A stretch of 64,000 nucleotides of DNA from Verrucomicrobiota bacterium (GCA_029573725.1 JAKQDQ010000042.1:777-64776), one strand, 5' to 3'. Positions 34,745-52,127 are shown, counted from the stretch's first letter. The notes: generated from the letters alone by a model not told the origin. Numbers and translations: made by a program.

Positions 34745-35449
34745 TTAGGAATTGTTAGGAGTCTTGCCGTCTCGCAACTTCGCCAGCGCCGATTCAATCC
34801 GATCATCCACGCCGTTCTTATCCGCATCTACCATTCCCCGCAACTGACCGTGACGATGCGCCAGAAACCAACCACCGACAGCCAACGCAACGCCACCCAA
34901 AATCAGTAATTCGTTGCCCACAATCATGCTTGGCAAAACCATGAGTGTCAAACCACCAACGACGAGCGCGGCGCTTGTCGTCACGCTGCCAATAAGCAGC
35001 TTGAGCGGCGGATAGAAAATGGATGCCAGGCCGAACGCGAATATGGCGGCGCCCACCCACACAATTCCCTTGAGGCTCGCCAGTTTCGCGCCGATTTCAC
35101 GGGCGGTGTCTTTCTGGGCCGCGCCGAGTTCCGTCTTGGCCCGCGTCTCCTCGCGCTCGACAACGGGCATCGGCGCGCTCACGACCACAGCCGCGGCGTT
35201 CGTCGCGCCGGATTCCAGCCGTGACCCAGTCGGCACGGTGTAGCTCCGCGTGCGCACCGTCTCCTGATCCTGACGCGACACGGCCGCTGGGTTGTCCGAT
35301 TGCACGACGGTTTGCTCAATGCCCTGAGTAGGTTTGCTCAATGTCGTGGCCTTGCCGCCCTTGAGCGGACCAGTGCCGGCGCAACCGCACAACAGGCCAA
35401 CAGATGCCCTCACGGCAAAATCAATCAGGGTGAAATTCAGTCGTTTCAT
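34745..35449 (-). CDS. hypothetical lipoprotein/membrane protein (last gene of the element)
   Basis: Start MKRLNFTL...VGLLCGCAG (lipobox-like) and three C-terminal TM helices. No family recognised. Confidence 0.45.
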   Translation of the reverse strand: MKRLNFTLIDFAVRASVGLLCGCAGTGPLKGGKATTLSKPTQGIEQTVVQSDNPAAVSRQDQETVRTRSYTVPTGSRLESGATNAAAVVVSAPMPVVEREETRAKTELGAAQKDTAREIGAKLASLKGIVWVGAAIFAFGLASIFYPPLKLLIGSVTTSAALVVGGLTLMVLPSMIVGNELLILGGVALAVGGWFLAHRHGQLRGMVDADKNGVDDRIESALAKLRDGKTPNNS

Positions 35450-35468
35450 GCTTCTTGGTGGCCGTCCG

Positions 35469-35774
35469 CTAGGACCTTTCCTGGAATCGCCGCAGTTCAA
35501 ACGCGCACTCGTTCAATGCGGCGGTATTGTGATCAATGCACACCGCCAGCTTCAGTGACGTCTCACTTTGCTTCTCGATGATTTGGGCGAGGGCGTGGTG
35601 ATGCGCCTCCCGCAGTTCCTTGTGATCGGCGAGGACGCTTTGGAGTTGCCGAACGAGCCAGTAAATGACGATGCCGCCACCGACCAGCAACAGGCAGAAC
35701 GCCGCCAGGAACAACCAGCGATCATTCATGGTGGCGGCATGATCCACGGCCTTGATCATTTCATTCGCATTCAT
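35469..35774 (-). CDS. small single-TM protein (holin/spanin-like topology)
   Basis: 101 aa (MNANEMIK...) with one TM helix (WLFLAAFCLLLVGGGIVIYWLV) and a helical tail. The function is unproven. Confidence 0.4.
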   Translation of the reverse strand: MNANEMIKAVDHAATMNDRWLFLAAFCLLLVGGGIVIYWLVRQLQSVLADHKELREAHHHALAQIIEKQSETSLKLAVCIDHNTAALNECAFELRRFQERS

Positions 35775-36241
35775 GGTTGCCTCACTTGTTGCACGCGTTC
35801 GATTAACAGCCGGCGCGTCGTGAAAAACTCCATCGCCTTCGTCGCCCGCACGAGCGTCGGCTCCCCCGGCCAGCTCGCCCAGTGCACCAGATTCGTGCTG
35901 CGCTCGAGGACCGGTGTCAGTCGCACCCAGGTTTCGCTCTGCACAACCGGTGCGACGGGTTTCGCCTCCCACTCCACCACGTTGCTGAAATCTGATGCGA
36001 TGCCGCTGCCATCCACGGCCGTTGCCGCGAAGCACCAGCGGCCCGGATGCGGTAACACCACCGCTTGCGTCAGCGTCAAACCCGCGTTGGTCACGAAGCA
36101 GTAATTCGCGCCGTTCGTACCGAAATGAATCCGGTAGCTGACGACGCCCGGCGATGGCGACGCATCCCACACGAGCGTGACCGACTGCGCGTGGACCATC
36201 AGCGCACAAGCCAGAATCAAACTTGTGAACAATGGCTTCAT
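35771..36241 (-). CDS. secreted FN3/Ig-like domain protein
   Basis: Signal peptide MKPLFTSLILACALMVHAQS followed by an FN3-like pattern (LVWDASPSPGVVSYRIHFG...). Confidence 0.5.
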   Translation of the reverse strand: MKPLFTSLILACALMVHAQSVTLVWDASPSPGVVSYRIHFGTNGANYCFVTNAGLTLTQAVVLPHPGRWCFAATAVDGSGIASDFSNVVEWEAKPVAPVVQSETWVRLTPVLERSTNLVHWASWPGEPTLVRATKAMEFFTTRRLLIERVQQVRQP

Positions 36242-36756
36242 GTTCTCGTGAGCTGCACCGCGCCGCTCCGGCTCTTCAGGAGCGCGCCGTATTTCGCCAG
36301 GTGCGCCTGGACCAGACGCGGGATAACCGGCGGCGTGTCGTTCTTGTCGTAACCCGTCTGTTCCGTGCCGGTGTTGTGATACTTCAGCCCTTCACCGGCC
36401 GGCGCCGCCGTGCGATCCGCCACGAGGAGTTCCCGCGCCATCTCGCACGTTGCTTCGATGACCGCCTTCGGCACAGAGTCAGCGGGAAGCTCGTCTTCAG
36501 AATCTGGGAGGCGACACCGTCGCCGCGGCCATTGCCGCGCTTGTGCCTCGTCCGCCTTCACGCCGTTGAACTGGTATTGCCCATCAATCAGCCACGTCGC
36601 CATCACGAGCGCCTTCTCCTTGTTGGCCAACGTCGCCGCGGTCCACGCGGAGGCATACAAGTGCCCGTCGTGATACGCGTCGCCATCCGCCGCGTTCGCG
36701 TAAGCGTTGGCATCCACCAGACCGGCTCCGGTTTCTTTGATGAGCGTCAGCGCCAT
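36238..36756 (-). CDS. putative head-tail adaptor (DnaT_2-like phage protein)
   Basis: The N-terminus MALTLIKETGAGLVDANAYANAADGDAYH matches the pattern I associate with phage DnaT-like/adaptor proteins. It sits just downstream of the capsid genes. Confidence 0.5.
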   Translation of the reverse strand: MALTLIKETGAGLVDANAYANAADGDAYHDGHLYASAWTAATLANKEKALVMATWLIDGQYQFNGVKADEAQARQWPRRRCRLPDSEDELPADSVPKAVIEATCEMARELLVADRTAAPAGEGLKYHNTGTEQTGYDKNDTPPVIPRLVQAHLAKYGALLKSRSGAVQLTRT

Positions 36757-36762
36757 AACCCT

Positions 36763-37629
36763 TCACAGGTTTTGCACCAGCGCGAGCACGGCCTCTGAAA
36801 AACGCGTGCGCAGAAACGTCGCCCGCTCCGTCCACCACGTCGTCACGCCCGACAGATTCAATTCAATCGCCACGAAACTGCCGTCCGGCTGGCGCATCAA
36901 ATCCACACACACGTAGCCGAGCCCGACGTCCGTCATGCGCCGGCTCAGTTGGCGCAATGCCACCTTGTCGGCATCGGGAAATTCCAACAGCTCCCGATGC
37001 CGTTCGTCCGGTCGCTCCATCGGATCGCGATAGACGGCCAGCCGCCGGAAACCGTCGGCATCCAAGTCGCCCGCTAACAGTCGTTCGCCTAGCGGACGCT
37101 TTTTAAGCACGTAGGAAATCAGGATGCGACCGTTGAACAGTTCGACTTTGTAGGTGTTGCCGTCGTTCGGATTGACCTCGCGGCAGATGATGTCGCGCGC
37201 CAGATCCCAATCGCCGTAGCGCACTTGCCCCGGTGTCACGACATGAAAGCCCGCGCCACCCGCAGTGAACGACCGCTTCACGATCAACTTGTCCACGCCC
37301 CAGGTATCAAACAGTGCCAGCGCGGCGGACTTGCTGTTCACGGTCTGCCATTGCATGGTTGGAAAGCCCGCTTGATCCAGCGCGAGCAATTGCTCTGCGC
37401 GCGTCCAGCGGCGCCCGCCAAACGCTTTCCCGGGCAGTTGCTGCCGCACACTCGCCGGCAACTCGAAATGACTAAGCACCATGCCGTAGCCCGCGAGCTG
37501 CAATTCGGTCGGCCCGACGCCCCACACCACGTCCGCCTCATGCCCGTTGGCGCGCAGATGCGCCGCCACGGCTTCGTAGCGACTCAGCAACGACTCGCCG
37601 GCATTCCAGGTATGTAAGAGTGCTTTCAT
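36763..37629 (-). CDS. ATP-grasp domain protein (RimK/glutathione-synthetase-like ligase)
   Basis: LIVKRSFTAGGAGFHVV (ATP-binding Lys/Gly-rich loop), YKVELFNGRILISYV and YVCVDLMRQPDGSFVAIELN (Mg/ATP-binding E-x-N region), about 288 aa. Confidence 0.65.
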   Translation of the reverse strand: MKALLHTWNAGESLLSRYEAVAAHLRANGHEADVVWGVGPTELQLAGYGMVLSHFELPASVRQQLPGKAFGGRRWTRAEQLLALDQAGFPTMQWQTVNSKSAALALFDTWGVDKLIVKRSFTAGGAGFHVVTPGQVRYGDWDLARDIICREVNPNDGNTYKVELFNGRILISYVLKKRPLGERLLAGDLDADGFRRLAVYRDPMERPDERHRELLEFPDADKVALRQLSRRMTDVGLGYVCVDLMRQPDGSFVAIELNLSGVTTWWTERATFLRTRFSEAVLALVQNL

Positions 37630-37632
37630 GCT

Positions 37633-38031
37633 TTAACCACCCAGCACGCTGCCCGCCGCTTGGTTGGACTGTGCCGACTCGCCGGCACCGTTATAGGCCA
37701 CCACGTAGTAGGTGTAAGGGATGCCCAGTTCCGCCGTCCAATCCACGAAGCTGGTTTGATTCGCGAACATCTGCGCCCGCAACGCGAACGCCTCGTTGAA
37801 TGGCTTGCGATACAGCCGAAACCCCGTCTCATTGGCGGACTGATCCGTCCACGAAAGCGCGATGTTGCCGAAGCCACTCACGGCAATCAGATTGATCGGC
37901 GCATTCGGCACGGGTGTCGGCTGCACCCGCGCGCGGCGCCGGTCCTGCAACCACGTCGCCAGCCAGCCGTGAAACCGCCGCGCAGGCGACCACGACCTAC
38001 CGTTCGCTCTGGTTTGAGGCAACTTGCGCAT
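37633..38031 (-). CDS. FN3-domain protein (possible capsid decoration protein)
   Basis: PNAPINLIAVSGFGNIALSWTDQSANETGFRLYRK...YTYYVVAYNGAGES is a canonical fibronectin type III pattern. The start is uncertain because the N-terminal 40 aa are Arg-rich. Confidence 0.5.
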   Translation of the reverse strand: MRKLPQTRANGRSWSPARRFHGWLATWLQDRRRARVQPTPVPNAPINLIAVSGFGNIALSWTDQSANETGFRLYRKPFNEAFALRAQMFANQTSFVDWTAELGIPYTYYVVAYNGAGESAQSNQAAGSVLGG

Positions 38032-38203
38032 CGTCAGCTTTTGGCTCGTCTTCGCTCACCACGGGTTCAACGGGCTTCGCCGCCACCGGTTGCACCGGCG
38101 ACGGTGGCCCGTCCGGCACGGACTTGCCCACAACGACCGGCGGCGCATCCGCCACGACCAGTGGCCGCCGCACACGTCGGATGATGGGAAGTAGTTCGTT
38201 CAT
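37997..38203 (-). CDS. small Pro/Val-rich hypothetical protein
   Basis: 68-aa ORF directly downstream of the capsid gene. Low complexity, weak call. Confidence 0.3.
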   Translation of the reverse strand: MNELLPIIRRVRRPLVVADAPPVVVGKSVPDGPPSPVQPVAAKPVEPVVSEDEPKADDAQVASNQSER

Positions 38204-38260
38204 TGGTAGTTCGCCCTCGCCCGCGTAGCAGGCGAGGGCAATCGCCTGACCGTGCTACGG

Positions 38261-39271
38261 TCAGTTGTTGTGATCCACCGCCACGATGCGGACGTTCTTG
38301 TTCTCGAACACCCGCGTCCAGTTGGCGGCATTCTCCAGTTCCGCGTTGGTCGGGCTCGTGCCCGCCACCGCCGCGGAATTGAACTTCACGCCTCGCGGAT
38401 GCAGGATGAAGCGACGCCGGTTGATGAAGTTCGTGTCGCTGTCCAACGCGGCTCGCGCCCACTCGACCCCTTCCGTGCCGTGCCCGCCCATCAGCGGTTC
38501 ACCCGCCAGCGGCGCCGCGCCACGGGCGAATGCGCCCGGCCCGAACAGGTAGCTGGTGTAAACCTGACCATCGGTCGTGCCGTTACGCACGGGCAGACCA
38601 TCGTCCACGATGACGCGCCGGCCCTGGAAGGTCTTGATCTGCGCTTTCCCCTCGCTGTCGGGGATGAAGTCAATCAAGTCCAGTTTGCGCAGCGCCGCTT
38701 CGGTGCCCGAGTGCATCGCCACTGCCGTGAGACGGTCGCCCCGGTCGCCGAGCTTCACCGTCGCATCCACGAAGGTGGCGCCGTTGAGCCGCGTCGCGGA
38801 CGACTGGCCCGCGATGCTTTCACTCGCGATGGACAACTTGTTGCCCGCCATCGTCGCCGAGGCGAACAGGCCCTTGAGGCTGGAAACGATCAGGCCCTGG
38901 TCCACCCGAATCCAGTAGTCGCCCACCAGCTCCACCAACGCGCCCATCGGATCATCACCGGAAAGCACCTTGGCCAGGTCATTCACGCTCCACGCATTCG
39001 CGTCCATCTGGATGCGCGCAATGTCCTTGCTCGCGGTGATCTTGTTCACCGTGAGCGGCGCATTGTCAGCCAGAATCTGGCGCGTCGGATTCACATCCTG
39101 CCAGAACGGCATGTCCACCGTGTTCCCACCACCAGCGGCCAGCGCGTCAAAGAACGGGTCGCTCTCGACGATGCCACTCGCACCGAACGCCGACAGGGTC
39201 GCCGTGCGCTCGATCACGTATTTCTCAAACACACTCGGAACAATCACGTCCGAGATTGCCGTCTTAGCCAT
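38261..39271 (-). CDS. major capsid protein
   Basis: 336 aa, immediately after the scaffold gene. The N-terminus MAKTAISDVIVPSVFEKYV and the MPFWQD motif resemble phage coat proteins. Size and position fit an HK97-fold MCP. Confidence 0.75.
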   Translation of the reverse strand: MAKTAISDVIVPSVFEKYVIERTATLSAFGASGIVESDPFFDALAAGGGNTVDMPFWQDVNPTRQILADNAPLTVNKITASKDIARIQMDANAWSVNDLAKVLSGDDPMGALVELVGDYWIRVDQGLIVSSLKGLFASATMAGNKLSIASESIAGQSSATRLNGATFVDATVKLGDRGDRLTAVAMHSGTEAALRKLDLIDFIPDSEGKAQIKTFQGRRVIVDDGLPVRNGTTDGQVYTSYLFGPGAFARGAAPLAGEPLMGGHGTEGVEWARAALDSDTNFINRRRFILHPRGVKFNSAAVAGTSPTNAELENAANWTRVFENKNVRIVAVDHNN

Positions 39272-39326
39272 AAACTAACCTTTCGTTTTTCTTGCGCGCC
39301 AGCGCGGTGGCCGGCACGCAGTGCCC

Positions 39327-40076
39327 TCAAGCCGTCGCCTTCAGGCGTGCGGCCAGTTGCGGGTCGGATTTCTCAATCTTCATTTGCTCCGTCACGTTCC
39401 ACGTCTCCTTGCGGAAGGGATTACGCACGGACCGGTGGCCAGCCCCACCGGAGCCAGAGCCGGCGGCACCGCCACCAGCGTTTGCTTCGAACAAGTGCGG
39501 CGCGTCGGACACCAACGCCTCCACCCATTCAGCCAAAGTCATCGGCGACACCCCGTCCTTGCCGGTGCGCATCCGCTCGCCGTCGAAAGCTTGGGGAACT
39601 CCGTCCACCAGCTTGAACGTCATTCGCGCTCGCGACGTGATGTCAGGAATTGCGGTCGCCCGCAGCCCGCGTTTCGTCGCCTCGTTCACGACCGCTTGAT
39701 CAATTTGAATCGCTGTCAAACGACCATGCAGGGCATCACGCTCGGCGACCACGACCCTGTGTTGCTTGTCCCAATCCGCGCGGGCCGTCCTGAGCCGGGC
39801 CTCAATCACCTTGTCCACTTCGCCCGCCTTGATCTGCGCCGCTTCCTCCAGCTGGCGCTTCTCCTCGGTAAGCTGCCGCACGGCATCCGGATCAATGCCC
39901 TCAAAGCGTTTCAACTGATTCGCCAGCGCGATGTTGTTCTGCCGAAACTCCTCGTGTTTCGCCCGGTCCACCACGCCTTCCGCATCCAGGACAAACGCGC
40001 CATCGCGCTCGACGTAAAAGCCCGCTTGTTCCGCCGGGATTTCCTCCCGCTTCCCGTATTTGTATTTCAGTGCCAT
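39327..40076 (-). CDS. phage scaffolding protein
   Basis: 249 aa, charged and helical (coiled-coil EEKRQLEEAAQIKAGE...), with a Gly-rich linker and a basic C-terminus. It lies between the portal-proximal gene and the MCP. Confidence 0.65.
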   Translation of the reverse strand: MALKYKYGKREEIPAEQAGFYVERDGAFVLDAEGVVDRAKHEEFRQNNIALANQLKRFEGIDPDAVRQLTEEKRQLEEAAQIKAGEVDKVIEARLRTARADWDKQHRVVVAERDALHGRLTAIQIDQAVVNEATKRGLRATAIPDITSRARMTFKLVDGVPQAFDGERMRTGKDGVSPMTLAEWVEALVSDAPHLFEANAGGGAAGSGSGGAGHRSVRNPFRKETWNVTEQMKIEKSDPQLAARLKATA

Positions 40077-40149
40077 ATCTTCTTTTTGTCGCAGCGGACG
40101 TGAGTCCGCTTATTTGTTCATTTCGCACTCCGCGCTCCGAATTCCGCAC

Positions 40150-40731
40150 TCACAACTCCACCTGAATCCGCCCTTGCATCATCACCCCCGGACTCAGTTG
40201 GCCTTCCACGTAGTGATGCACGCGCAGCCAGATGAACGTGTCCACCGGCCATTCGCCTCCCTCGCCCGGACCATCCCACGACCCGTGCACGGCTGCATAC
40301 GCCGTCCCAATCGACGGCGTTAAATCACCCATCACCAGCGTTCCCGGCGTCATCACCGCGATGAAGCGCAGCCATCCATGCGCGTTCACCTCCTCCGCGC
40401 CCAACGGTCGCGTCGCCCACACCAACCACTTCACGCCCGGCCCAAAGTTGTCCTCCGCCCGAAAACCCACGAACCCGGCGTTCTCCGTAAACGGCCCGGC
40501 ATCGCGCAGCGATAAACCGCCATCCGACCACGTTGCCTCTCCGGGCAGCACCGCCGGATTCGCCGCGTCACCCGCGAGCGCCCGGTTGCGCAACACCCTC
40601 GTCATCGCCTTGCGCCCGCTCACGCGCCGCACCGTGCCATCAGCCAGCAGCACCGGATTGTTCTTCGCCCACGCGCTCCACGCCCGACGTTGCGTTTGCG
40701 TCAGGGACTTCCATTCCTTCGCCGCTTTCAT
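40150..40731 (-). CDS. hypothetical head-module protein
   Basis: The start MKAAKEW overlaps the portal stop (ATGA). 193 aa, no motif recognised. Confidence 0.45.
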   Translation of the reverse strand: MKAAKEWKSLTQTQRRAWSAWAKNNPVLLADGTVRRVSGRKAMTRVLRNRALAGDAANPAVLPGEATWSDGGLSLRDAGPFTENAGFVGFRAEDNFGPGVKWLVWATRPLGAEEVNAHGWLRFIAVMTPGTLVMGDLTPSIGTAYAAVHGSWDGPGEGGEWPVDTFIWLRVHHYVEGQLSPGVMMQGRIQVEL

Positions 40732-42218
40732 TGCGTTGCGTCTCCTTGTTCGCTTGCCATCGGCATTTGTTGACCGCGACAAACCAGTTGGTGCTCCTCC
40801 TCATTGGTGCGTCCCGGCGGCAACACTTCACCGCGCCGGAACAGCTCGCACATCGTCTCCCGGCTGATCGCCCCCGCCTGCCACGCGGCCACGACGGCCG
40901 TGATCTCATCACTCGACATCCCCTTCGTGCTGAAGTCCGAGTTGAGTTCCATCAACACGACGTCTTCACCAATTTCCTCAGGGCTTTCCTCGGTCGAGTT
41001 CCACCAATAAACCCAGCGCAACACGTGCGTCAGTGAATCACTCACACTCAACGACACCGCCGACAGCACCGAGTTTTCACCGCTTTGACGAAGTTCGATC
41101 GCATCGGCGGATTCGCCCACGCGCTTCTGTGCTTCGAGCATTCGCGTGCCAAGCACCGCCATGAGCCGTTCATCACGATCCATCGCCCGTTCAAACGTCG
41201 TCAGCCCTTGGCCCGTGAACTCCAGGAAACCAGCCGTCGCACCGGGAGTTTCCGCCACCCACGCAGTGCTTGAGCCGATTCGCAGCGTCGCCGACTTGTC
41301 GAACCCGCTCACCCAGGCCGTCGGCAGTGCGGTAAAATGCAGGCCATGCTTGTAGTCGGCATTCAGCCGATAGTGATCCAGATTCACCGCGATGATGTCC
41401 GCCAGCGGCAGTTTATCCACGCATGGCTGGCAGTTACGCGGACCATGAAACACGAACGGAATCAGTGGCAGCGGTTTCCCCAGGCGAAGCGGAATCCGGG
41501 TTTCGACTTTGACCCATTCGGGTTTGCTGCGCTTGGACTTCGACTCCTGGCGCTGCCAGATTTCCACCTGATAAAACCATCCGGTATTCTTTTCGTCAGA
41601 ACTTTTGGCTCCCTTCACGAGTCGCAACACCCGGAGTTGTTCCACTTCCTTGACGACGAAAGGATCCTCCTGACTCTGCCCCGTCTCACTCAGGACGAGC
41701 AGGGTCAGAACATTCCGACCATTCACCCGTTCCGTACGCCAGTTGATGATTTGTTCCACTTGGTAGAGTACGGCATAGGCGCGACGTTCCACGTCACCTT
41801 CCCAATCCACGAGTGTCCCGGCCCGACCCACCGTGATGACCTCACTGACGATGTTCTTCGCGTAGGATTCCAGCGGCGTGCCGAGCATGTCGGCATCATC
41901 CCGGAATCCCGCGAGTGCCTTGCCCACACCGGACTGGTCGTCCGGCAATTTCACGGCGGACTCGCGCCGGAAGATCAAACCCACGAAACCATCCACCGTG
42001 CGGGCCGTGGCATTGAAGAAGGAAGCACGGGATTTGTAGGCGGCATATTCGGTTTCGGATTGCGAGTCGAGGCGCGGCAGATACCGGGTGCCGGCGGCCT
42101 TCACCGCGTCCTCGCCCGCAAAAACATCCCGCGCCCGCAACCACGCGGCGGCGTTGGCATCGTAATCAGGATGGGTCGAGTTGACCGGCACGCGCGCACC
42201 GTAGCACGTCATTTTCAC
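40728..42218 (-). CDS. phage portal protein (DUF4055-like)
   Basis: 496 aa. The N-terminal pattern HPDYDANAAAWLRARDVFAGEDAVKAAGTRYLPRL...EYAAYKSRA is typical of DUF4055-type portals. Confidence 0.8.
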   Translation of the reverse strand: MKMTCYGARVPVNSTHPDYDANAAAWLRARDVFAGEDAVKAAGTRYLPRLDSQSETEYAAYKSRASFFNATARTVDGFVGLIFRRESAVKLPDDQSGVGKALAGFRDDADMLGTPLESYAKNIVSEVITVGRAGTLVDWEGDVERRAYAVLYQVEQIINWRTERVNGRNVLTLLVLSETGQSQEDPFVVKEVEQLRVLRLVKGAKSSDEKNTGWFYQVEIWQRQESKSKRSKPEWVKVETRIPLRLGKPLPLIPFVFHGPRNCQPCVDKLPLADIIAVNLDHYRLNADYKHGLHFTALPTAWVSGFDKSATLRIGSSTAWVAETPGATAGFLEFTGQGLTTFERAMDRDERLMAVLGTRMLEAQKRVGESADAIELRQSGENSVLSAVSLSVSDSLTHVLRWVYWWNSTEESPEEIGEDVVLMELNSDFSTKGMSSDEITAVVAAWQAGAISRETMCELFRRGEVLPPGRTNEEEHQLVCRGQQMPMASEQGDATQ

Positions 42219-42404
42219 GGCTCACCCGCATGTCATCTGCGCCTCACGAACCATCACGAACCCCACCCCTCTTGCCACGAACACACCCGAACTATTTTTT
42301 GTGGATTCCCCCTTGACGGTTTTCACAACCACGACGCGACACAACTTGCGAACGCCGCAATGTCCGTTGGCGGGCAGCGGCGTTCTCCCGTGTCTCCACT
42401 CCGT

Positions 42405-42599
42405 AGCTCTCGATGTGGTGTGTGTGTCAGCTCCGCACAGGCCGCGTAGATGGACGGCGAATGCATCTGCCGCGCCAGCCTGCCGCAGGCGCAACACAGG
42501 CTGTCACGGCAGATGCTTCGCCGGAGGAATTGAATGCGCTGTCGCGCAGCGCGACCCGTGCTCCGCAATGGTGATGACACACACACCACATCGAGAGCT
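42405..42599. repeat. 195-bp inverted-repeat element with perfect 25-bp arms (IR1)
   Basis: AGCTCTCGATGTGGTGTGTGTGTCA (42405-42429) is the exact reverse complement of 42575-42599. The 145-nt interior contains further nested stems, for example GGCGAATGCATCTGCCG / CGGCAGATGCTTCGCC and CAGCCTG / CAGGCTG. Confidence 0.85.
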
Positions 42600-42813
42600 G
42601 CTACGTTACGTTCGCAGTCACTGGCTGCGCTGGCAGGGCAGCATTGCCAGCTTCTATTTCCAGCGCGTCACCCAGCCCGTCCAGTTCTGGGTCGCGTGCG
42701 GGCGTCCACCCCAGTTCGCGCCCCGCATCCCGTGGTGGCAGCCGTTCGTCTGGCAGTATCTCGTCATCACTGGCTGGGTGCGGCCATCGCGCCAGCCACC
42801 TTGGGCAGCGTGA
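42568..42813 (+). CDS. hypothetical Trp-rich small protein (weak call)
   Basis: 81-aa frame (MVMTHTPHRELLRYVRSHWLRWQG...) with very high third-position GC, better than the antisense ORF 42601..42861. Its ATG lies at the inner edge of the right arm of IR1. Confidence 0.25.
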   Translation: MVMTHTPHRELLRYVRSHWLRWQGSIASFYFQRVTQPVQFWVACGRPPQFAPRIPWWQPFVWQYLVITGWVRPSRQPPWAA

Positions 42814-42901
42814 GCCGCTTCGTGGCTCACCGTCGCCGTGAACGATATCCACCTTGAGCATGGCGTAAGAACGGAAGTTTTGGCACGCTGCGGATTGAGC
42901 C

Positions 42902-43453
42902 ATGTGCACCGATTACGAAGGCCCAAAGCCGGAACAAAAAGCAGAGATCGAGCGTAAAATCCGATGTGAGGTTTTCGGCTTTGTCCCGCGTGCCCGTGTT
43001 CGCCCCACTGACCCGGCGCCAATCATCATTCCGGTGGAAGATTCTTTGGCCTGCTCCGAAATGCGGTGGGGCTGGACTGTGCCGTGGGACAAAGCACCAT
43101 TGGTCAACGCCAAGAGTGAAACCCTCACCACGCTTGCCACGTTCAAGCCCCACTTGGATCAGCGCTGTCTGATTCTCGCCCGCAGTTTCAAAGAAGGCGG
43201 CGCGCAATTTCACCAATCCGGATGGGGCGTGTTCTGTCTGGCCGGTCTCTGGCGCGAGGAATCCAGCGGCCCGCGCTTCGTCATGCTCACCACCACACCC
43301 AGCGAATCCGTCGCCCCCTTTCACAATCGGATGCCGTTTCTGCTCCGGGAAGAACAATTCCCCGACTGGTTGCGCGGCGATTACCTCAAAGTGCTGGCCG
43401 CACCGGACAAGTCGCCGCTGGAGAAATTCCAGAAGCAGCCCGAATTGTTTTAG
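42902..43453 (+). CDS. SOS response-associated peptidase (SRAP/YedK family)
   Basis: It starts with MC (the catalytic Cys2) and has the conserved NAKSET and HNRMPFLL motifs. 183 aa. It is on the strand opposite to the structural genes. Confidence 0.8.
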   Translation: MCTDYEGPKPEQKAEIERKIRCEVFGFVPRARVRPTDPAPIIIPVEDSLACSEMRWGWTVPWDKAPLVNAKSETLTTLATFKPHLDQRCLILARSFKEGGAQFHQSGWGVFCLAGLWREESSGPRFVMLTTTPSESVAPFHNRMPFLLREEQFPDWLRGDYLKVLAAPDKSPLEKFQKQPELF

Positions 43454-43513
43454 TTCACTCGCGCCGTCCCGCTTTTCAAGCAGTCGAGACCGGTGAACAC
43501 CAATCGTCCTTCG

Positions 43514-43726
43514 TCACCATCGTCGTTTTGGACCAACGTAGATCGCGTTACACCGACAACGCGCCTGGAATGCTTTTGGAATCGGCGACCGCATCTTGAT
43601 CTCGGCCACGACACGGCATTGTTGGCAAATCAGCAACGCCACGAAATCTTCGGATTCGTAACCGACACTGACCTTCACGCGGGAAGTTTCACACGCAGCC
43701 ACGTAAACTCGTTCTTCGCTGGCCAT
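43514..43726 (-). CDS. small zinc-ribbon-like hypothetical protein
   Basis: 70 aa with a non-degenerate composition and CQQC...CRC cysteine pairs. Its third-position GC is lower than the host's. Confidence 0.35.
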   Translation of the reverse strand: MASEERVYVAACETSRVKVSVGYESEDFVALLICQQCRVVAEIKMRSPIPKAFQARCRCNAIYVGPKRRW

Positions 43727-44742
43727 TTCAACGCGCCGGGTATTCGGTCGCCCTCGAAAGACAAAATTGGCCCGCTGCGCTCGAAGGGAAATTAGTTCGC
43801 GCTACATGGCTCGCCGGTGCGGCTCGCACTTCGCGTGCTCAACCACCACGAGGCGCGCAACCATTCACGGTTTCCATGTGCGAACGTCACGCTCGCGGCC
43901 CTTTCGCTCCAGCGCCCACGCATCGAACGCCGCAGGTTGTCGAACGTCGGTCGTGCATTCCAACCGTTCAGGTTGGCGGATGTTTTAGGCGCGCTGTCAG
44001 GCATGGGGATGGAATGACGCCGGCTCGTCGCTTCGCTCCTCGAATTGCAAGGTGGCCCGTGCGGCACGCACCAGCCTGGCTTCACAGAGCGGACACTTGC
44101 GCTTCGGCGCGGCTGCCCCGCTTCGCAGTTCAGCCGACCTCGCGCCAGGTGACGCGGTTCGGGCAGGCGCTGGCCGCCAGATGATCCTCACCGCTTCCGC
44201 ACTGTTCCGCCCGCGCCACTGGCCGGACTCGTCAGCTTTCCGCCCGCTCCATTCGCTGCCGCACTCCGCTTCGCCGACTTCGCTGGATGCTCTCGCTCAT
44301 TCCGACGGCCGCAAACTGCCGAGACCGGCACGGACAGCGGTGCTCCCAAAAACGCAAGACGCCGAAGGCCGCGATGCTCCGCATGTCGCCCAGGACAAGA
44401 CCACCGGAATAGCCGTGAGCCCGCCCAGCTTTCGCTGGCGCGAAACTGGCCGGACTCACTGATGGTGGCCATCCGCAAGGATGTCTGAGACTTCGTCGTC
44501 AGGCTGCGGTCCTGCTACCGATCCACACCCTGATCCCCTGGTGGCCGTCCGCAAGGACCTCCGCTCTGCCGTCGAAGACTCAGAATGGTTGGCTTCGCGT
44601 TGGCGCGACTGCGCCCGGTGGCCGGTGACGCTGTCACCCGGCAGACCCGGCCAAAGGCATCGGCTCGCGGCGGATTGGCACGAACGACCGGCGAGGCTTA
44701 CGGTGCTCGTTCCTGCGCGCCTGTGGCCTCGCCTTGCGTACC

Positions 44743-44886
44743 GGGGCGACACACAACACATATTGTGCGTTCGTTCCCTCGTGCCTCGGTCACACCTTTA
44801 TTCCTGATCGCACCGACACTCCTCACTCGTGAGCCGCTTCGGTGCGGGAATAAAGGGTCGCACAATATGGCGTTGTGTGTAGCCCC
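44743..44886. repeat. 144-bp nested imperfect inverted repeat (IR2)
   Basis: GGGGCGACACACAACACATATTGTGCG (44743-44769) pairs with CGCACAATATGGCGTTGTGTGTAGCCCC (44859-44886). Inner stems are ACCTTTATTCC/GGAATAAAGGGT, CGCACCGA/TCGGTGCG and CTCAC/GTGAG. Confidence 0.8.
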
Positions 44887-45370
44887 GCTGCTTCACTGTC
44901 ACGCTGATTGCTTCCTGGATTCCCCATCCGGCACGCGACTGCCCTCGTCGCGTGGCAATCACCGCGCCAGCTCGCAGGCATCCTTCGCGCCAACACCGCC
45001 GCTCCGCATGATGGCCAGTGCGGCACGCACCAGCCGGGTCTGCTTGCCCCAATAGCTCGCCGGTACGGCTCGCACCCCCACCCAACCCCAATGCTCGACC
45101 CCTTCCGTCCCCAAGGGGTCGTCGCGCGCAAAGTAGTTTGCTCGCTTCGCTGGTTGGATCGCGTGGCTGCAGGATGCAACCACGCGCCAATGGAAGGCCG
45201 GACTCCGGCTTTTCAGGTCCGGCTTTTTCTGCTCCGCGTTTCTCTCCATCGCCCTCCCGGCCTCGCCGCAAGACCAGCCCGCCCACTCGTGGCGACCTTC
45301 TGAAGACCACTTCCACGGGGGAGGGCTGGCGGCTCGGCGTTGTCGTGAAGGGCGACGGACAGAAGACGCA

Positions 45371-45949
45371 ATGCAGAGCAGAAAAAAAAAGACCATGAAA
45401 ACAAATAAACAAAACTATGAAGGGGCTCGGGAGCAGATCCGCAATACTCAGCAGACCAACACCAGCACAGTTCGACAAGAAGTTGATGCAGTGGTGGCCA
45501 AGTTTTCCACCCCGACCGGTGGAGACGTGACCGCGCAGGACATCGCGGAGCAGAAAGCCCGTGATGCGAAGCAAGCCAAGGTTGATAATCGCTTGCCGAT
45601 TGATTCCCAGGCACGGAAGCAGAACCGGACGCTTCCGACCCCGAAGGTGTTGAACCTTTTGTTGACCACGTTGCCGGACGTTTACCGCGCCGCCGAGGTT
45701 GTCGGGAAATGGGTTTGGGTGACGTTCAAGGAGCAACCCGCCGCCGAGATTCGGCAGCACTTGGCCCAGCTTGGCTTCCACTGGAATCGTGAGCGGCAGA
45801 CATGGCAGCACCCCTGCGGCCAGTTCCGCTTGAGCAGCAACAACGACCCGCACGAGAAGTATTCCAGTTACTACCCCGCCCGGATTCGTCGCAGCACCAA
45901 AGCACAGACCCCGGAGATGATGGCCAGTGGCGCTGCCACCGCCGCGTGA
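45371..45949 (+). CDS. hypothetical protein (phage/plasmid accessory type)
   Basis: 192 aa. The C-terminal segment VGKWVWVTFKEQPAAEIRQHLAQLGFHWNRERQTWQH resembles a small domain I have seen on plasmid/phage accessory proteins. An alternative start is at 45395. Confidence 0.5.
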   Translation: MQSRKKKTMKTNKQNYEGAREQIRNTQQTNTSTVRQEVDAVVAKFSTPTGGDVTAQDIAEQKARDAKQAKVDNRLPIDSQARKQNRTLPTPKVLNLLLTTLPDVYRAAEVVGKWVWVTFKEQPAAEIRQHLAQLGFHWNRERQTWQHPCGQFRLSSNNDPHEKYSSYYPARIRRSTKAQTPEMMASGAATAA

Positions 45950-45993
45950 TTCAACCGGGGCGGGCAGCACCCGCCCCCAACTCTCCCAAGATT

Positions 45994-46209
45994 ATGACGA
46001 ACTCCTACACCCTCCGAGCCGGTGACCTTGTCGAGTATGCCGGCCAGCCGTGCCGCGTGGTTCGCGTGAGCGAATCCGCCGCCCTTGTCGCCGTGATTCA
46101 AAAGCCGCGCACCATCACCCCGCGCTTTGGCAAGCCGGTGACCATTCAACCACGCCCCAAGCTGGAGCGCATTTCCCCAAACTCCGAAATCCCCATCCTT
46201 AACCGCTAA
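45994..46209 (+). CDS. small hypothetical protein
   Basis: 71 aa (MTNSYTLRAGDLVEYAGQPCRVVRV...), SH3/KOW-like beta pattern, tightly spaced with its neighbours. Confidence 0.4.
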   Translation: MTNSYTLRAGDLVEYAGQPCRVVRVSESAALVAVIQKPRTITPRFGKPVTIQPRPKLERISPNSEIPILNR

Positions 46210-46213
46210 CACT

Positions 46214-46675
46214 ATGAACCAAGACCAGAATATCAATCCAGAGGAAGCGCTCCGCGCCGTTTTCGGCGAACCGCAGCAGATCGCCGACGGCATCACCGCG
46301 TTCGGCCCGGTCGTTTACAGTTACACCCGCGCGCAGGCCGTCGCCGACGGCGTGCAAGTCGAAGTCACCAAGACCGCGCAGGAAGCCGGAATCCGCTTCC
46401 CGGTTTTTCTCACCCGCACCGTATTCGACGCCTACGTTGCCGTGCCGCCCGACGTGACCGGCCAAGACGAAGCCGGGCGACTCTGGGACATCGTCTGGAT
46501 GTTGCGCTTTGCCATCCAGCGCACCAGCCGCGGAGTTGCGCGCCTGCCGTTCGCGCTCTACGTGCGCAACGACAACCGCGCCGCCAAGCTCATCAAGTTG
46601 GTCGCCGTCGCTGGCCCGCTCGACATTGACGACCCATCGCCCGCCATCACCGTGATGTTGCCGGACGAAGATTGA
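46214..46675 (+). CDS. hypothetical protein (possibly DUF6573-like plasmid/phage accessory protein)
   Basis: 153 aa with a clean, non-degenerate sequence. The family assignment is from memory only. Confidence 0.5.
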   Translation: MNQDQNINPEEALRAVFGEPQQIADGITAFGPVVYSYTRAQAVADGVQVEVTKTAQEAGIRFPVFLTRTVFDAYVAVPPDVTGQDEAGRLWDIVWMLRFAIQRTSRGVARLPFALYVRNDNRAAKLIKLVAVAGPLDIDDPSPAITVMLPDED

Positions 46676-46721
46676 AACCACCACAGGCCGCGCTCCGCTC
46701 CGGGGCGCGGCCCTTTGACCT

Positions 46722-47057
46722 ATGACTTCCCAATCATTTCTTGGATTCGAGCAGCAGACCCGCGACGCCGAACTCGCCGCCGCCAATGCCAAGCTACAGG
46801 CCAAGCTCGCGGAGCAGGCCCAACGCGCCATCCGCAAGCGACAGGAGGAAATGGCCAAGAACACCCGCCGATGGAAGCGCGAGGAAGCCACGCGCAAGCG
46901 GAACGACATCCTCGTTGCTCAGTGCGGCATCAATTGGTATTCGCGCCGCCGCGATGCGGGCATCTACTGGACGCACTGCAAGACTTGCGGCCAGTTGCTC
47001 CACTACACCGACGACAAAAACGCGAAGCCCCAAGTTTGCGCCGGTCGCAAATCGTAG
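46722..47057 (+). CDS. coiled-coil + zinc-ribbon hypothetical protein
   Basis: 111 aa with a charged helical N-terminus and C-terminal C..W...HCKTCG...C cysteines. Confidence 0.45.
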   Translation: MTSQSFLGFEQQTRDAELAAANAKLQAKLAEQAQRAIRKRQEEMAKNTRRWKREEATRKRNDILVAQCGINWYSRRRDAGIYWTHCKTCGQLLHYTDDKNAKPQVCAGRKS

Positions 47058-47132
47058 CCCCCCCATATTTTCCAGCCTGCCGCGATGACACCCTCGCGGC
47101 TGGAGGCAGGTGCGGCTCGCACAAAAATTTTT

Positions 47133-47172
47133 CGCCTGACGGCTCGCGCTCGTCAGGCGAATCCATTTTTTC
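47133..47172. terminator. bidirectional rho-independent terminator between the plus-strand island and terL
   Basis: CGCCTGACG (47133-47141) pairs with CGTCAGGCG (47151-47159). ATTTTTT follows on the plus strand and AAAAATTTTT precedes it, which gives a T-run on the minus strand. Confidence 0.55.
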
Positions 47173-47233
47173 GGCTGGGTCTTGCGCCGACCCAGACCCG
47201 CGCCAAAGGGTGGCAACCCTCTGGGCACTGTGC

Positions 47234-48631
47234 TCACAGCCCCCGCAACTTCCGCTCGCTGATCGTTCGGGTTTTCGTCGCCACCAAGTAGCGGAGACAG
47301 TCCGCGCAGTCATCGCCCCCAACGCCATCCTCGTCCGCGTCCACCTTGAGCACGTCCTCGGGCCGGTTTGGATCGTGTTGGAGTGCCGGCAACGTCTCAA
47401 TCAGCCGCCCGCAACGGGCGTGAATGAATAGTGTCGGCCTGATGCCTCCCTCAATATCACCTAACCCTTGCATAACTTCTGCCCAACCGTTCACCCGGTC
47501 GGTGTTGGCTGGACGCAGCGTGATACCCTGTTTCGCATATTGCGCGGCAATCGTCGTCCCGTCCGATTGCCGGCTGAAAACATCCGCGCCGGCCACGAAC
47601 CGTTTCAGGTCCGCCAGCGTCAATGCCCGGTCGCCAATCTTGTGCCGCGCGAGCATGGCCTTGATCGCCGCCGCGTGCCGTTGCGGCAGCCACAACCGCT
47701 CCGCGTGTTCATCCACGACATAGGTGTTTCCATCGCCATCGCGGCAGCCGAGCAGGCAGACCGTGTAATGGACGTGGCCGTAGTCAAAGGCACAGAACCA
47801 CTCCACGGCCCGCGCATCGTCGAAGTCCTCGACGACGTGAACGTCGCGCCGGAACTGCGTGAAGAACTGACCGGCGGCAATGTCCCAATCACCATCGAGC
47901 CAGGCGCGGCGTTGCCAGCCCGTCAGACCTTCCAGAATCCGCCGGTATTCCGGGTTGTTGAACGCATTGTCGTCGACGCGGGCCGGAATGAAGCGCGTTT
48001 CCGTCTCGCGCCGCTCCAGCATCGGCTGGACGAATCGCTTGCGATACCACGCATGACCAACGCCGCCGGGATTCGTGGTGGAGTAGATGCGCGGACGCCA
48101 GTTTGGCTTGGACGACCGGCAGCACGTCGTAATGTCTTGAAACTTCCGGCTCGTCAGTGTGGTTGCTTCCTCGATCCCAATGACATCGTATTCCAAGCCC
48201 AGGTAGGCATCCACGTCCCGGTCATTCTGGAAATGCCCGGCAATGATGCGCGAACCATTCGCGAAGGTGAGGATGCCGCGGAACGCGCTGAACTCATGTG
48301 GCAGCCGGTTGAACAGCCGTTGCCGGAGATCCTCGAAGTGCTCCAGGTTCGCTTTGCCCACTTTGCGGAGCAGCAGACATTTCAATCCTGGCACACGCTG
48401 ACAATCGTCGGCGCCGACTTGGGACAACATCCAGTGCGACTTGCCGCCGCCACGAGCGCCACCGTAACCGACTTCCGTCGGCCCGTCGGGGCGGTCGCAC
48501 AATCGGGCGGCAGCACTGGCAACCAGTTGACGCTCTTGCAACCACAATTTCGCGGCCACGAAGTTGCGGGTTTGATCCTCGGGACAGCCCGCCGCAATCG
48601 CGGCGTTCAGGAAAATTTCACGCTCGTTCAT
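47234..48631 (-). CDS. terL: terminase large subunit
   Basis: 465 aa with Walker A-like GGARGGGKS, Walker B LLLRKVG..., the ATPase coupling motif GIEEAT and a C-terminal RNaseH-like nuclease region (FDYGH..., DADEDG). Confidence 0.9.
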   Translation of the reverse strand: MNEREIFLNAAIAAGCPEDQTRNFVAAKLWLQERQLVASAAARLCDRPDGPTEVGYGGARGGGKSHWMLSQVGADDCQRVPGLKCLLLRKVGKANLEHFEDLRQRLFNRLPHEFSAFRGILTFANGSRIIAGHFQNDRDVDAYLGLEYDVIGIEEATTLTSRKFQDITTCCRSSKPNWRPRIYSTTNPGGVGHAWYRKRFVQPMLERRETETRFIPARVDDNAFNNPEYRRILEGLTGWQRRAWLDGDWDIAAGQFFTQFRRDVHVVEDFDDARAVEWFCAFDYGHVHYTVCLLGCRDGDGNTYVVDEHAERLWLPQRHAAAIKAMLARHKIGDRALTLADLKRFVAGADVFSRQSDGTTIAAQYAKQGITLRPANTDRVNGWAEVMQGLGDIEGGIRPTLFIHARCGRLIETLPALQHDPNRPEDVLKVDADEDGVGGDDCADCLRYLVATKTRTISERKLRGL

Positions 48632-49224
48632 GGCTTCGCCTCCTGGACGTCAATCACCGGTTGCTCCGGGACAGCTTCCACCTTCGCGCTATACGCCTTG
48701 CGGATGGCAATCTCCCAATCCACATCAATCGTCGCCTTCACCGTGGTGTTGACCTCCTTCACTTCTGTCGGCATCCCTGCCGCCAGCCGACCGAGCTTGG
48801 TTGCCAGTTCCAGCACGCGGGCGATGCCTTCCAGCGTGCCGCACTTGGCTTTGTTCTTTTCCCACCGCGCCAACATTTCATCCGCCAGCGCGATTAGCTT
48901 CTTGTGCCGCTGCCACTCGGCGACTTTCACGGCTTCATGCACCTTGTTCCAATCGACCGCCTTTTCGAGCGCCAACCCTTCGATGGCTTCGCGCTCGATG
49001 GTCGCCAGGTGCGCGGCGTGAGCTTGCACCCGTGCCGGCCAGTCGAACCGCCGCGACCAACGTTCGATCATGGTCTTGGACTTGCCGTGCTGGACGGCCA
49101 CGACCGCCAGCGAGCGTTGTGCGCCAAGTTCTAAGTAGGTTTTGAAAGCCGCGAACGCCTTGTTGCTCTCGCGGGGTTGCTGTTCAAATGACAACGCTGC
49201 TGTTTCTTGCTTGCTCGATTTCAT
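48628..49224 (-). CDS. terS: terminase small subunit (HTH type)
   Basis: The start MKSSKQ at 49224 and N-terminal AFAAFKTYLELGAQRSLAVVAVQHGKSKTMIERWSRRFDW match the HTH pattern of small terminases. Its stop overlaps the terL start. Confidence 0.65.
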   Translation of the reverse strand: MKSSKQETAALSFEQQPRESNKAFAAFKTYLELGAQRSLAVVAVQHGKSKTMIERWSRRFDWPARVQAHAAHLATIEREAIEGLALEKAVDWNKVHEAVKVAEWQRHKKLIALADEMLARWEKNKAKCGTLEGIARVLELATKLGRLAAGMPTEVKEVNTTVKATIDVDWEIAIRKAYSAKVEAVPEQPVIDVQEAKP

Positions 49225-49378
49225 GGTCTTTTTTTCCGCTGGCCCGTCCGGCTCGGACCGTCTCGCCTTAACGGCAGTAGTGGAATGGCAACCCGACCCA
49301 AGAAGGGTTGCCTTCCCGACTGCCTGCTTTGCTGGTGTAGTCCACTTTCTATTTAAGGGATGTTGGACTGTTGGACTG

Positions 49379-50416
49379 CTACTCGTTTCCGACCCAATAC
49401 AGCCCGCCGCCACTCTTGATTAAACCGTTGGCCACAAGCCGTTTGAGGTAGTTTGCCACGCTGCTCCGGCTCATCTTGAACTCGCTTTTGGCGGCTTCGA
49501 CGATTTTGGCGAAGGTTTTGCCCTCCGAACTCATCACGGCATCCACAAATTCCTTGTCCGAACACACCTTGTTTTTGGACTGTGGCCGGCGCAGTGCTTC
49601 CGGGTTCAGGTCGCTGGCGACCTTCATCAGGGGATACTCCCAGCCGACCACGAACTCCGGCAGTTGCGGCAGGTTGCGGAGGATGCTGGTGACGGTGAAG
49701 TGATCCGGCTCTTCGTGCGGCGTCAGCACGACGATGGTGTCGGGGTCGCGCGCCCACGCGCCTGCACCGCTCATGCGGTCCATCGCCGACTTCGCCGTGC
49801 TATCGCCCTTGGCAAAATGGTGCGCGACCACGATGGCCGCGCCGGTCTTCTGCGCCATTGCTTCAAACTCGTTCATCAGGCTGGCGATCTCGCCGTTGGC
49901 GTTCTCGTCGCGGTTGCCCAGCACCTTGTAAGCGGGGTCGAGGATGATCAGACCGAACTGATGCTTGGCGAGTTGTTCCTCCAGCTTGGGCCGCAGCAGG
50001 GTGATGTCGGCATTGTGCCCGCGCAGATTCCAAATGTGCAGCGTCTTGCCCATCGCCTTGCACTCGGGCCGCGCCCCGCACAACGCATTGATGCGTTGCG
50101 CCACCGCCCAGGTGTGCAGCTCGAAATTGATATACACCACCGGCAGCTTGGCGCATTGCCGTCCCCACCACGGTTGCCCGCTCGCCACGGACAACGCCAG
50201 GTCCAGCAGACACCACGACTTGTTGCTCTTGCTCGTCCCGCCGAGGATCATCTTGCACCCTTGGTGCAGGATGCCCTCGATGATGAGCGGCGGCGGTGGC
50301 GTCGCCACGGCGCACAACTGCTCCAGCGTCAGAATGTCCGGCAGCGGCGGCGCGACCGCGCCCAGGTCCACCGCCGGGTCAACCTGCTCAGTCGGGGAAT
50401 AGGTTTTGATCTCCAT
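49379..50416 (-). CDS. RepA/DnaB-like replicative helicase (AAA_25) with C-terminal wHTH
   Basis: Walker A ILGGTSKSNKS, Walker B LIILDP and a RecA-like core, with a C-terminal MarR-like helix (VANYLKRLVANGLIKSGG). Confidence 0.7.
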   Translation of the reverse strand: MEIKTYSPTEQVDPAVDLGAVAPPLPDILTLEQLCAVATPPPPLIIEGILHQGCKMILGGTSKSNKSWCLLDLALSVASGQPWWGRQCAKLPVVYINFELHTWAVAQRINALCGARPECKAMGKTLHIWNLRGHNADITLLRPKLEEQLAKHQFGLIILDPAYKVLGNRDENANGEIASLMNEFEAMAQKTGAAIVVAHHFAKGDSTAKSAMDRMSGAGAWARDPDTIVVLTPHEEPDHFTVTSILRNLPQLPEFVVGWEYPLMKVASDLNPEALRRPQSKNKVCSDKEFVDAVMSSEGKTFAKIVEAAKSEFKMSRSSVANYLKRLVANGLIKSGGGLYWVGNE

Positions 50417-50417
50417 G

Positions 50418-51792: not shown

Positions 51793-51813
51793 GGTGGCCG
51801 GTGCGGTTCGCAC

Positions 51814-52020: not shown

Positions 52021-52040
52021 CCGGCCCGTCGCGGGATTTG

Positions 52041-52127
52041 AAATTTCTCCCTCTCCGCCTCGGTCGGGGAGAGGGATAAAGGGTGAGGTGTCGCTAGGCA
52101 TTTGTCGCATCCGTCCTATTTGTCCTA
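52041..52127. repeat. REP-like hairpin repeat, copy A
   Basis: TCTCCCTCTCCGCCTCGGTCGGGGAGAGGGATAAAGGGTGAGGTGTCGC...ATCCGTCCTATTTGTCC is shared with copies at 53186 and 53806. Confidence 0.75.

Follow-up and report, generated by a model that had tools for sequence, protein, structure and literature searches.

An ATP-grasp enzyme of an uncatalogued family predicted in the head operon of a tail-less, satellite-like element from Verrucomicrobiota

The window analysed here is a whole stretch of 64,000 nucleotides from a Verrucomicrobiota bacterium (GCA_029573725.1 JAKQDQ010000042.1:777-64776), and positions given without a locus name refer to it. Its minus strand carries an SPP1-type head operon that is part of an element classified, from its gene content, as integrated, satellite-like and without recognisable tail genes. 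The open reading frame (ORF) at 36763-37629 in this operon was assigned by structural modelling to the ATP-grasp enzymes, as a member of an uncatalogued family. It is encoded between an FN3 display protein and the head-tail adaptor (SPP1 gp15/Ad1 type), and it was found at the same place in every carrier in which the flanks were present. As a tentative proposal, the enzyme could be a late-expressed carboxylate-amine ligase modifying the display protein or another component of the head or neck.

Identification of the ATP-grasp enzyme

No Pfam match was returned for the ORF even at E ≤ 10, and nothing was above cut-off in Pfam, PHROGs, NCBIfam or PADLOC. The only sequence-family matches under E = 0.01 were graspetide maturases, which were matched by the C-terminal part of the protein. 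The weak scores of the NCBIfam graspetide models TIGR04184, TIGR04185 and TIGR04187 were 19.9 bits (TIGR04187), 16.8 bits (MvdD) and 11.4 bits, against cut-offs of 350, 475 and 425 in the same order, which placed the ORF outside these families. The RimK model TIGR00768 reached 15 bits (cut-off 143.4) over residues 234-259 only, with no Pfam RimK match; a preliminary description of this DNA, made from the sequence alone, had taken RimK-type ATP-grasp enzymes as its background, and as a family membership this name was not supported. When the profile of the 51-member family was compared with PDB, ATP-grasp enzymes only were matched, at marginal E-values (PurK 0.006 as the best, DdlA 0.02). Membership of the Ddl family was not found either: there was no Pfam match, the profile matched Ddl entries of PDB at E-values of 0.02-0.6, and the likeness was at the fold level only.

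Sequence and profile searches of PDB gave marginal matches, and fold comparison was needed to identify the enzyme. The AlphaFold2 (AF2) model of the ORF had a mean pLDDT of 89.6 and a pTM of 0.87, and 564 PDB matches at E ≤ 0.001 were obtained with Foldseek, with a best E-value of 1e-12. The 50 top PDB matches listed were all ATP-grasp enzymes, namely Ddl, ArgX/LysX, PsnB, MdnC, DcsG, PurK and RimK. The best TM-scores among those listed were 0.62-0.67 for LysX/ArgX, 0.60 for RimK and 0.57-0.59 for PsnB and MdnC. The top matches in BFVD, where named, were phage ATP-grasp proteins. The ORF was thus predicted to belong to a known superfamily and to no curated family.

The catalytic residues were present and conserved on alignment. 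Across the wide family (n = 51), R77 was found in 51 members, K118 in 50, K161, D243 and E256 in 49 each, and N258 in 48. The ATP-binding K118 was invariant in the close family, and the Gly-rich loop consisted of S120, G125 and G127. In the profile alignments, K118 and this loop were placed on the ATP loop of PurK (VKRR..GYDGRG), while D243, E256 and N258 were placed on the Mg2+ motif D...E.N of DdlA (DF...EVNT). Because the canonical residues are conserved and aligned to known motifs, the enzyme is probably active. The two motifs quoted in the preliminary description proved to be this ATP-binding Lys/Gly-loop and these Mg2+ ligands, and its placing of an ATP-grasp gene between an FN3 ORF and the adaptor was confirmed in coordinates, fold and motifs.

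The dN/dS of the ATP-grasp gene was 0.07-0.20 over an unsaturated dS range of 0.5-1.0, which indicated purifying selection as strong as that on the major capsid protein (MCP) and the adaptor. The family was small, with 28 clusters in a set of 5.8 billion proteins and 80 representatives in one of 1.8 billion. No homologue was found by tblastn in 50,697 phage records, nor did a pattern-based scan of IMG/VR, run with the ATP-grasp alignment, yield a relative. The window's own genome, which is an assembly of 187 contigs from an uncultured organism, holds one copy of the element, and a second family copy was not found in it. In several other Verrucomicrobiota assemblies, two or three diverged element copies bearing the ATP-grasp gene were present on different contigs (L007/L009/L011 in one assembly, L008/L015, L006/L016 and L013/L014).

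Position of the ATP-grasp gene in the head module

The order of MCP, variable stretch, FN3 protein, ATP-grasp enzyme and adaptor was kept in 13 comparison loci, most of them in Verrucomicrobiota assemblies, at enzyme identities as low as 47%, and the gene order was also kept at P0030, with 40% enzyme identity. Wherever flanks were present, the ATP-grasp gene was located directly upstream of Ad1 and after the display gene (13 genome loci, L021, L037 and 6 metagenome loci), and the same position was found throughout a clade of 40-93% identity. The head-module ATP-grasps formed one clade in the tree, with a support of 98/94. The fixed position and the single clade together argue that the gene is not a randomly placed moron. 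A search for the adaptor in 401 sampled genomes of the phylum returned the window's own genome only, hence it gave no comparison set.

The catalytic set was kept in all family members except one drifted, long-branch subtype (P0064/P0068), in which the substitutions K161R, D243E, E256D and N258E were detected. Members of this subtype were located at L037:484-1431, L045:3108-4052 and L047:3-722, and the ORF was intact and directly ahead of an adaptor 71-74% identical to that of the window (74% for the Ad1 adjoining P0064). The product of the preceding gene, 148 aa long, combines the anchor with a beta-rich domain other than FN3. The drifted subtype may be a pseudo-enzyme.

The display protein and the variable slot

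The FN3 protein at 37633-38031 matched Pfam fn3 at E = 2e-4, which is under the curated cut-off, and its 12-member profile matched fibronectin FN3 in PDB at 8.8e-7. The AF2 model (pLDDT 85) showed a disordered basic N-terminus, a helix at residues 16-35 (..RRFHGWLATWLQDRRR..) and a seven-strand sandwich at residues 46-130, which bore out the earlier FN3 assignment. Its BFVD matches were FN3 modules of phage tail and fibre proteins. The second FN3 assignment, for the secreted protein at 35771-36241, was likewise upheld by a signal-peptide-like N-terminus and by profile matches to FN3 of PTPRF and fibronectin at 4.8e-5. When the two FN3-like proteins were compared with each other profile to profile, the match was not significant (probability 1.7%).

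The interval between MCP and adaptor ranged from 667 to 3174 nt in 36 loci. In 31 of these, the protein at the display-gene position fell into one single-linkage cluster, with lengths up to 613 aa, and at least 14 of the 31 have the anchor seen at the N-terminus of the FN3 protein in the window (..RRGWLATWLQDRRR..). The C-terminal domains were swapped among FN3, Laminin_G_3 (a ConA-like lectin) and unassigned domains, with one or two Laminin_G_3 domains in 5 of the 7 long display proteins tested. The common anchor and the swapped C-terminal domains indicated that the FN3 protein is one allele of an anchored, domain-swapping display protein family. Such a protein would fit a decoration of the head or neck surface, or an adhesin.

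In 12 elements, a conserved protein of 78-89 aa without known family was encoded directly ahead of the adaptor, at the ATP-grasp position (L073:4728-4997 and 11 other loci). The display proteins of these elements were long, and several were lectin-type.

Between MCP and the display gene lies a 68-aa ORF with a conserved N-terminal motif, LLPIIRRxRRPL, and a variable tail rich in Pro and acidic residues. Homologues were detected in many loci, including most related elements without the ATP-grasp gene. This ORF bears on an alternative in which the enzyme is a maturase of the graspetide (microviridin) type, forming ester or amide side-chain macrocycles on the 68-aa product or another small peptide. 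Consistent with it are the weak C-terminal matches to TIGR04187, MvdD and MvdC, top fold matches that include PsnB, MdnC and an ATP-grasp associated with RiPPs, and the leader-like conserved N-terminus of the ORF, whose tail has many Asp, Glu, Lys, Ser and Thr residues. MdnC/MvdD and PsnB act on a ribosomal polypeptide encoded nearby, but conservation and a repeated core motif are both lacking in the tail of the window's small ORF, the display gene lies between this ORF and the enzyme gene, most related elements without the enzyme have the ORF as well, and the family scores were far under the cut-offs (19.9 against 350 bits). A graspetide-type maturase was accordingly considered very improbable. 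The 68-aa ORF was rejected as a RiPP precursor in the principal interpretation because of its unconserved tail and its presence without the enzyme, and the small-peptide product offered as one option in the preliminary description is unlikely.

The overlap between the 68-aa ORF and the display gene was exactly 35 nt in the window, L001, L004 and L005, with the display gene in the +1 frame. This overlap could reflect translational coupling or a programmed frameshift fusion.

Proposed function of the enzyme

Proteins are well-known targets of ATP-grasp ligases (RimK, LysX and the tubulin ligases), and so are ribosomal peptides. In the literature searched, no ATP-grasp ligase tied to the building of a phage particle was found, and the association of an ATP-grasp enzyme with the SPP1-type head operon of a tail-less element was undescribed. 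To our knowledge, no ATP-grasp ligase has been described that uses ATP to modify a component of a phage head covalently.

The ATP-grasp gene starts 3 nt past the FN3 stop codon and its own stop codon is 6 nt ahead of the adaptor start; because of this spacing, the enzyme is probably synthesised late, together with the head proteins. As the superfamily, fold and residues suggest, a carboxylate would be phosphorylated with ATP and Mg2+ to an acyl phosphate, and the acyl group would then be passed to an amine. The likeliest substrate would be a head or neck component, and the first candidate would be the N-terminally anchored FN3 display protein directly upstream, which would gain an amino acid or a cross-link. 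This protein leads the candidates because the enzyme gene is embedded in the late operon with an invariable position beside the display protein and the adaptor, and because the enzyme is structurally close to protein- and peptide-modifying ligases and an intact ORF is kept despite the drifted active site of one subtype. That the drifted-site ORF stays intact in the same slot would be in keeping with binding to a partner in the virion. The most specific form of the proposal, a dedicated ATP-driven tailoring of the satellite particle in which an amino acid is placed on the FN3 protein or another head or neck protein, or a cross-link is made, and in which the drifted subtype serves as a structural pseudo-enzyme, was regarded as unlikely.

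The closest enzymes by fold were LysX/ArgX and RimK, which extend a carrier or ribosomal protein by amino acids at its acidic C-terminal tail. They have the same three-domain ATP-grasp fold of about 280 aa, with the best listed PDB TM-scores (0.60-0.67), and the same Lys, Gly-loop and D/E/N Mg2+ residues as the window enzyme. Sequence similarity was negligible (RimK 15 against 143 bits; LysX E about 0.7 with the family profile), and no partner whose acidic C-terminal tail is conserved was found for the window enzyme. The gene context also differs, as the window enzyme is encoded in a phage-type head operon, whereas LysX/ArgX and RimK belong to amino-acid biosynthesis or the ribosome.

Several observations weigh against a particle protein as the substrate. 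The enzyme is dispensable: at least 481 relatives of the element were detected by a metagenome scan with the adaptor alignment, the best 80 were taken for a census of the ATP-grasp gene, and 4 of the 46 with enough upstream sequence (about 9%) carried it. Both the FN3 gene and the ATP-grasp gene were missing from L024 and L025 (IMG/VR), which are in the same element family (TerL 79%, MCP 67% and adaptor 57% identity). FN3 display alleles without an ATP-grasp gene were present in L110 and L093, with similar C-termini. No conserved acceptor motif was found, and the C-terminal GG of the FN3 protein was not conserved. Relatives of the enzyme at 33-39% identity are located in polysaccharide loci, which suggests that the ancestral family acted on a sugar or a small molecule. 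The role suggested in the preliminary description, modification of a capsid, decoration or adaptor protein, is weakened by the dispensability, by the FN3 display proteins without the enzyme and by the polysaccharide-locus relatives; of the two outcomes named there as weakening the idea, loss of the catalytic residues and homologues scattered as morons without linkage to head genes, neither was observed. The gene was classified as optional cargo which in its carriers is always directly ahead of the adaptor.

Two further ideas were discarded. A ubiquitin-like GG of the FN3 protein, activated by the enzyme, was rejected because the C-termini vary (GG, GGA, GA, GS, QA, AE, GGE), and FN3 proteins of enzyme-free elements end similarly. 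The FN3 protein and the ATP-grasp enzyme as an inseparable cassette, an idea drawn from the joint absence in L024/L025, was rejected after the metagenome survey, because the display protein is near-universal (31 of 36 loci) and FN3 versions without the enzyme exist.

The optional presence raised the alternative of a passenger without any role in the particle, captured recently from a cell and either neutral, engaged in counter-defence or host takeover, or being lost; its position would then merely reflect an insertion-tolerant slot. The low share of carriers, the highly variable slot with several unrelated cargoes, the subtype with a drifted active site, the partial ATP-grasp match that was all L087 had, and the lack of homologues in the phage records and the IMG/VR scan mentioned above are in line with such a passenger. 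It is opposed by the low dN/dS, by the catalytic set kept outside the drifted subtype and by the same position across the whole clade, and known defence families were unmatched apart from one chance-level match. Taken together, a passenger was judged improbable.

If a particle protein is indeed modified, an enzymatic, ATP-driven step would be added to capsid maturation, alongside the self-catalysed cross-links of HK97 and the glycosylation in some mycobacteriophages. What the analysis offers is an uncatalogued ATP-grasp family with a fixed position in the head operon, under purifying selection, in elements with at least 481 metagenomic relatives. The context, head modules that lack a tail and carry an exchangeable display protein of lectin or FN3 type, is perhaps as important as the enzyme.

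Relatives of the enzyme in polysaccharide loci

The relatives outside the head module were found among genes of glycan synthesis and modification. The relative in L031 lies among GT2 and GT4 glycosyltransferases, DUF2142 and a pyruvyl transferase, that in L034 with GT2 and a sulfotransferase, and that in L035 adjoins a polysaccharide deacetylase; one family member is fused to GNAT. In the midpoint-rooted tree, whose rooting is uncertain, the head-module clade was nested among these relatives. The head-module enzyme was probably captured from a cellular family of glycan decoration.

Two Gammaproteobacteria assemblies showed a further arrangement. At L017:9896-11832 the relative is directly followed by a TupA-like ATP-grasp, near RmlC, RmlD and GNAT, and at L018:183-2081 it is fused to a TupA-like ATP-grasp and adjoined by GNAT, RmlD and RmlC genes. 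This may be a two-ligase module of glycan decoration.

An alternative was considered in which the enzyme is an amidoligase of a sugar carboxylate or small molecule, equips a uronic-acid-type sugar or its precursor with an amine or amino acid, and alters a host surface glycan or a particle-borne glycan recognised by lectin-type display proteins. The polysaccharide-locus relatives (L017, L018, L031, L034, L035) with the GNAT fusion, the nesting of the head-module clade and the carbohydrate-binding-type domains (FN3 or Laminin_G_3) of the partner display proteins speak for it, as does the TupA-like domain of Cj1438, which amidates glucuronate in capsular polysaccharide (PMC11800379). The likeness to TupA-like amidoligases extends to family members at 33-39% identity which adjoin or are fused to a TupA-like domain, and the chemistry, carboxylate-amine ligation, is presumably common to both. 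The window enzyme had no PF14305 match and corresponds to the partner of the TupA-like domain, not to that domain. TupA-like enzymes belong to polysaccharide gene clusters, whereas none of the element ORFs searched could be recognised as a glycosyltransferase or sugar-nucleotide gene. Moreover, the gene is tightly embedded in a late structural operon, not set near the attachment site with its own promoter; a surface glycan made late in the lytic cycle would have little time to matter; and the host genome has no second family copy. An amidoligase of this type was considered rather unlikely, though the main competitor to modification of the display protein or another head or neck component. If a sugar is amidated instead, the gene would represent phage-borne editing of the glycans to which the display proteins bind.

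A tail-less, satellite-like element

The terminase small subunit (TerS), the terminase large subunit (TerL), portal, scaffold, MCP and Ad1 were all identified, so the element has its own terminase, portal, capsid and adaptor, and TerL, TerS, a primase/helicase, RusA and HTH regulators are encoded upstream of the head genes. No tail family was matched among the element ORFs searched, four early-region ORFs (289-435 aa) being without assignment, and a gp16-type stopper was not found in the element. L029 represents a related complete phage with a normal tail module after the adaptor; none of the 80 metagenomic relatives matched its tail genes.

In L001, L007, L010, L012 and L015, the lipoprotein gene at the end of the operon was followed by an excisionase-like gene of about 116 aa and an integrase, both within about 2-3 kb of the adaptor. 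The integrase stands after the head module in L001, L007 and L010, with integrase-like ORFs in L012 and L015, and apparent host genes were seen beyond it in L007 and L010. The window was searched for homologues of the L001 integrase and excisionase-like gene and for terminal direct repeats; neither homologue was detected, and no repeat was convincing.

With no tail genes and with its own head and packaging genes, the architecture is closest to that of the phage-inducible chromosomal islands that form capsids (cf-PICI), which, as outlined in their description (PMC10085698), likewise have their own TerS, TerL, portal, capsid and adaptor and no tail genes. The integrase and excisionase-like genes bounding the relatives just after the head module are a further likeness, although the window copy has no homologue of the relatives' integrase. 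Other differences emerge from the same outline. The cf-PICI are reported there mainly from Proteobacteria and Firmicutes, and Verrucomicrobiota is outside the phyla listed. The window element is about 24 kb plus cargo, against a stated cf-PICI median of 14 kb; it has a scaffold where the cf-PICI have a prohead protease, and no head-tail connector or stopper was found in it. An ATP-grasp enzyme is not among the cf-PICI core components listed in that source. The element (34745-49413; relatives L001, L007, L010, L012, L015 and L038-L117) looks like a capsid-forming satellite in Verrucomicrobiota, and by analogy it would depend on a helper phage.

The gene order agrees with SPP1 (PMC9701221), in which the portal gp6, scaffold gp11, MCP gp13 and adaptor gp15 follow in the same sequence. 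In the window element, the interval between MCP and adaptor is instead the variable display slot with the ATP-grasp gene, and neither a gp16-type stopper nor tail genes follow the adaptor. The stopper of SPP1 is needed for DNA retention in the head (PMC9701221).

In L081 and L082, a second portal gene of opposite orientation was located at 7168-8268 (-), about 0.4 kb past the lipoprotein gene. Two family elements may stand there tail to tail.

Organization of the operon

The minus strand from 42.2 to 34.7 kb forms one densely packed operon, and all ORFs were found at the coordinates given in Table 1. The MCP shared 46-51% identity with the SPP1, phiFL3A and BL3 coat proteins (46% with SPP1 gp13).

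Table 1. Genes of the head operon and the terminase genes in the window
Feature	Position	Strand	Length	Basis or remark
Terminase small subunit	48628-49413	-		PHROG 6299 1e-21
Terminase large subunit	47234-48631	-		PHROG 2 and 979; Pfam Terminase_6N
Portal	40728-42218	-	496 aa	PHROG 145 1e-125; Pfam DUF4055
Protein in the portal/scaffold interval	40150-40782	-	210 aa	no family match
Scaffolding protein	39327-40076	-	249 aa	PHROG 206 2e-38
MCP, SPP1 gp13-like	38261-39271	-	336 aa	PHROG 247 6e-94
Small ORF	37997-38203	-	68 aa	homologues in many loci
FN3 display protein	37633-38031	-	132 aa	Pfam fn3, PDB profile, AF2
Predicted ATP-grasp ligase	36763-37629	-	288 aa	AF2 and Foldseek, conserved residues
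Head-tail adaptor, SPP1 gp15/Ad1 type	36238-36756	-	172 aa	PHROG 477 2.5e-32; Pfam DnaT_2 4e-26
Secreted FN3-like protein	35771-36241	-	156 aa	signal-peptide-like N-terminus; PTPRF FN3 profile match
Membrane-anchor-like protein	35469-35774	-	~100 aa	one hydrophobic N-terminal segment
Lipoprotein-like membrane protein	34745-35500	-	251 aa	last gene of the operon

The two junctions that follow downstream of the ATP-grasp/adaptor spacing are overlaps of 4 nt, the first being that of the secreted FN3-like gene with the adaptor stop codon. The preliminary description had let the element end at 35771; the operon was found to continue with the two membrane protein genes at 35469-35774 and 34745-35500. 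The former is conserved in many loci after the adaptor or the secreted FN3-like gene, and in the homologues of the latter a lipobox-like L(A/V)GC motif was seen together with C-terminal segments that are hydrophobic. Neither had a family match in the libraries searched and either could be a lysis protein, which bears on the lack of a holin expected of a cf-PICI-type satellite; for the ~100-aa protein, a role in lysis or exclusion is possible. In a promoter and terminator scan of 34.0-42.6 kb, sites were no more numerous than in shuffled sequence.

The 210-aa gene between portal and scaffold had homologues in some relatives only (L005, L042, L050, L053, L066 and L083), which marks this interval as a second optional slot of the head operon.

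In addition, a 17-nt motif, GCCGGTGCGGCTCGCAC, with the palindromic core GTGCG-GCT-CGCAC, was present in seven copies inside the element (43813-53904), at 43.8, 44.1, 45.0, 45.1, 47.1, 51.8 and 53.9 kb.

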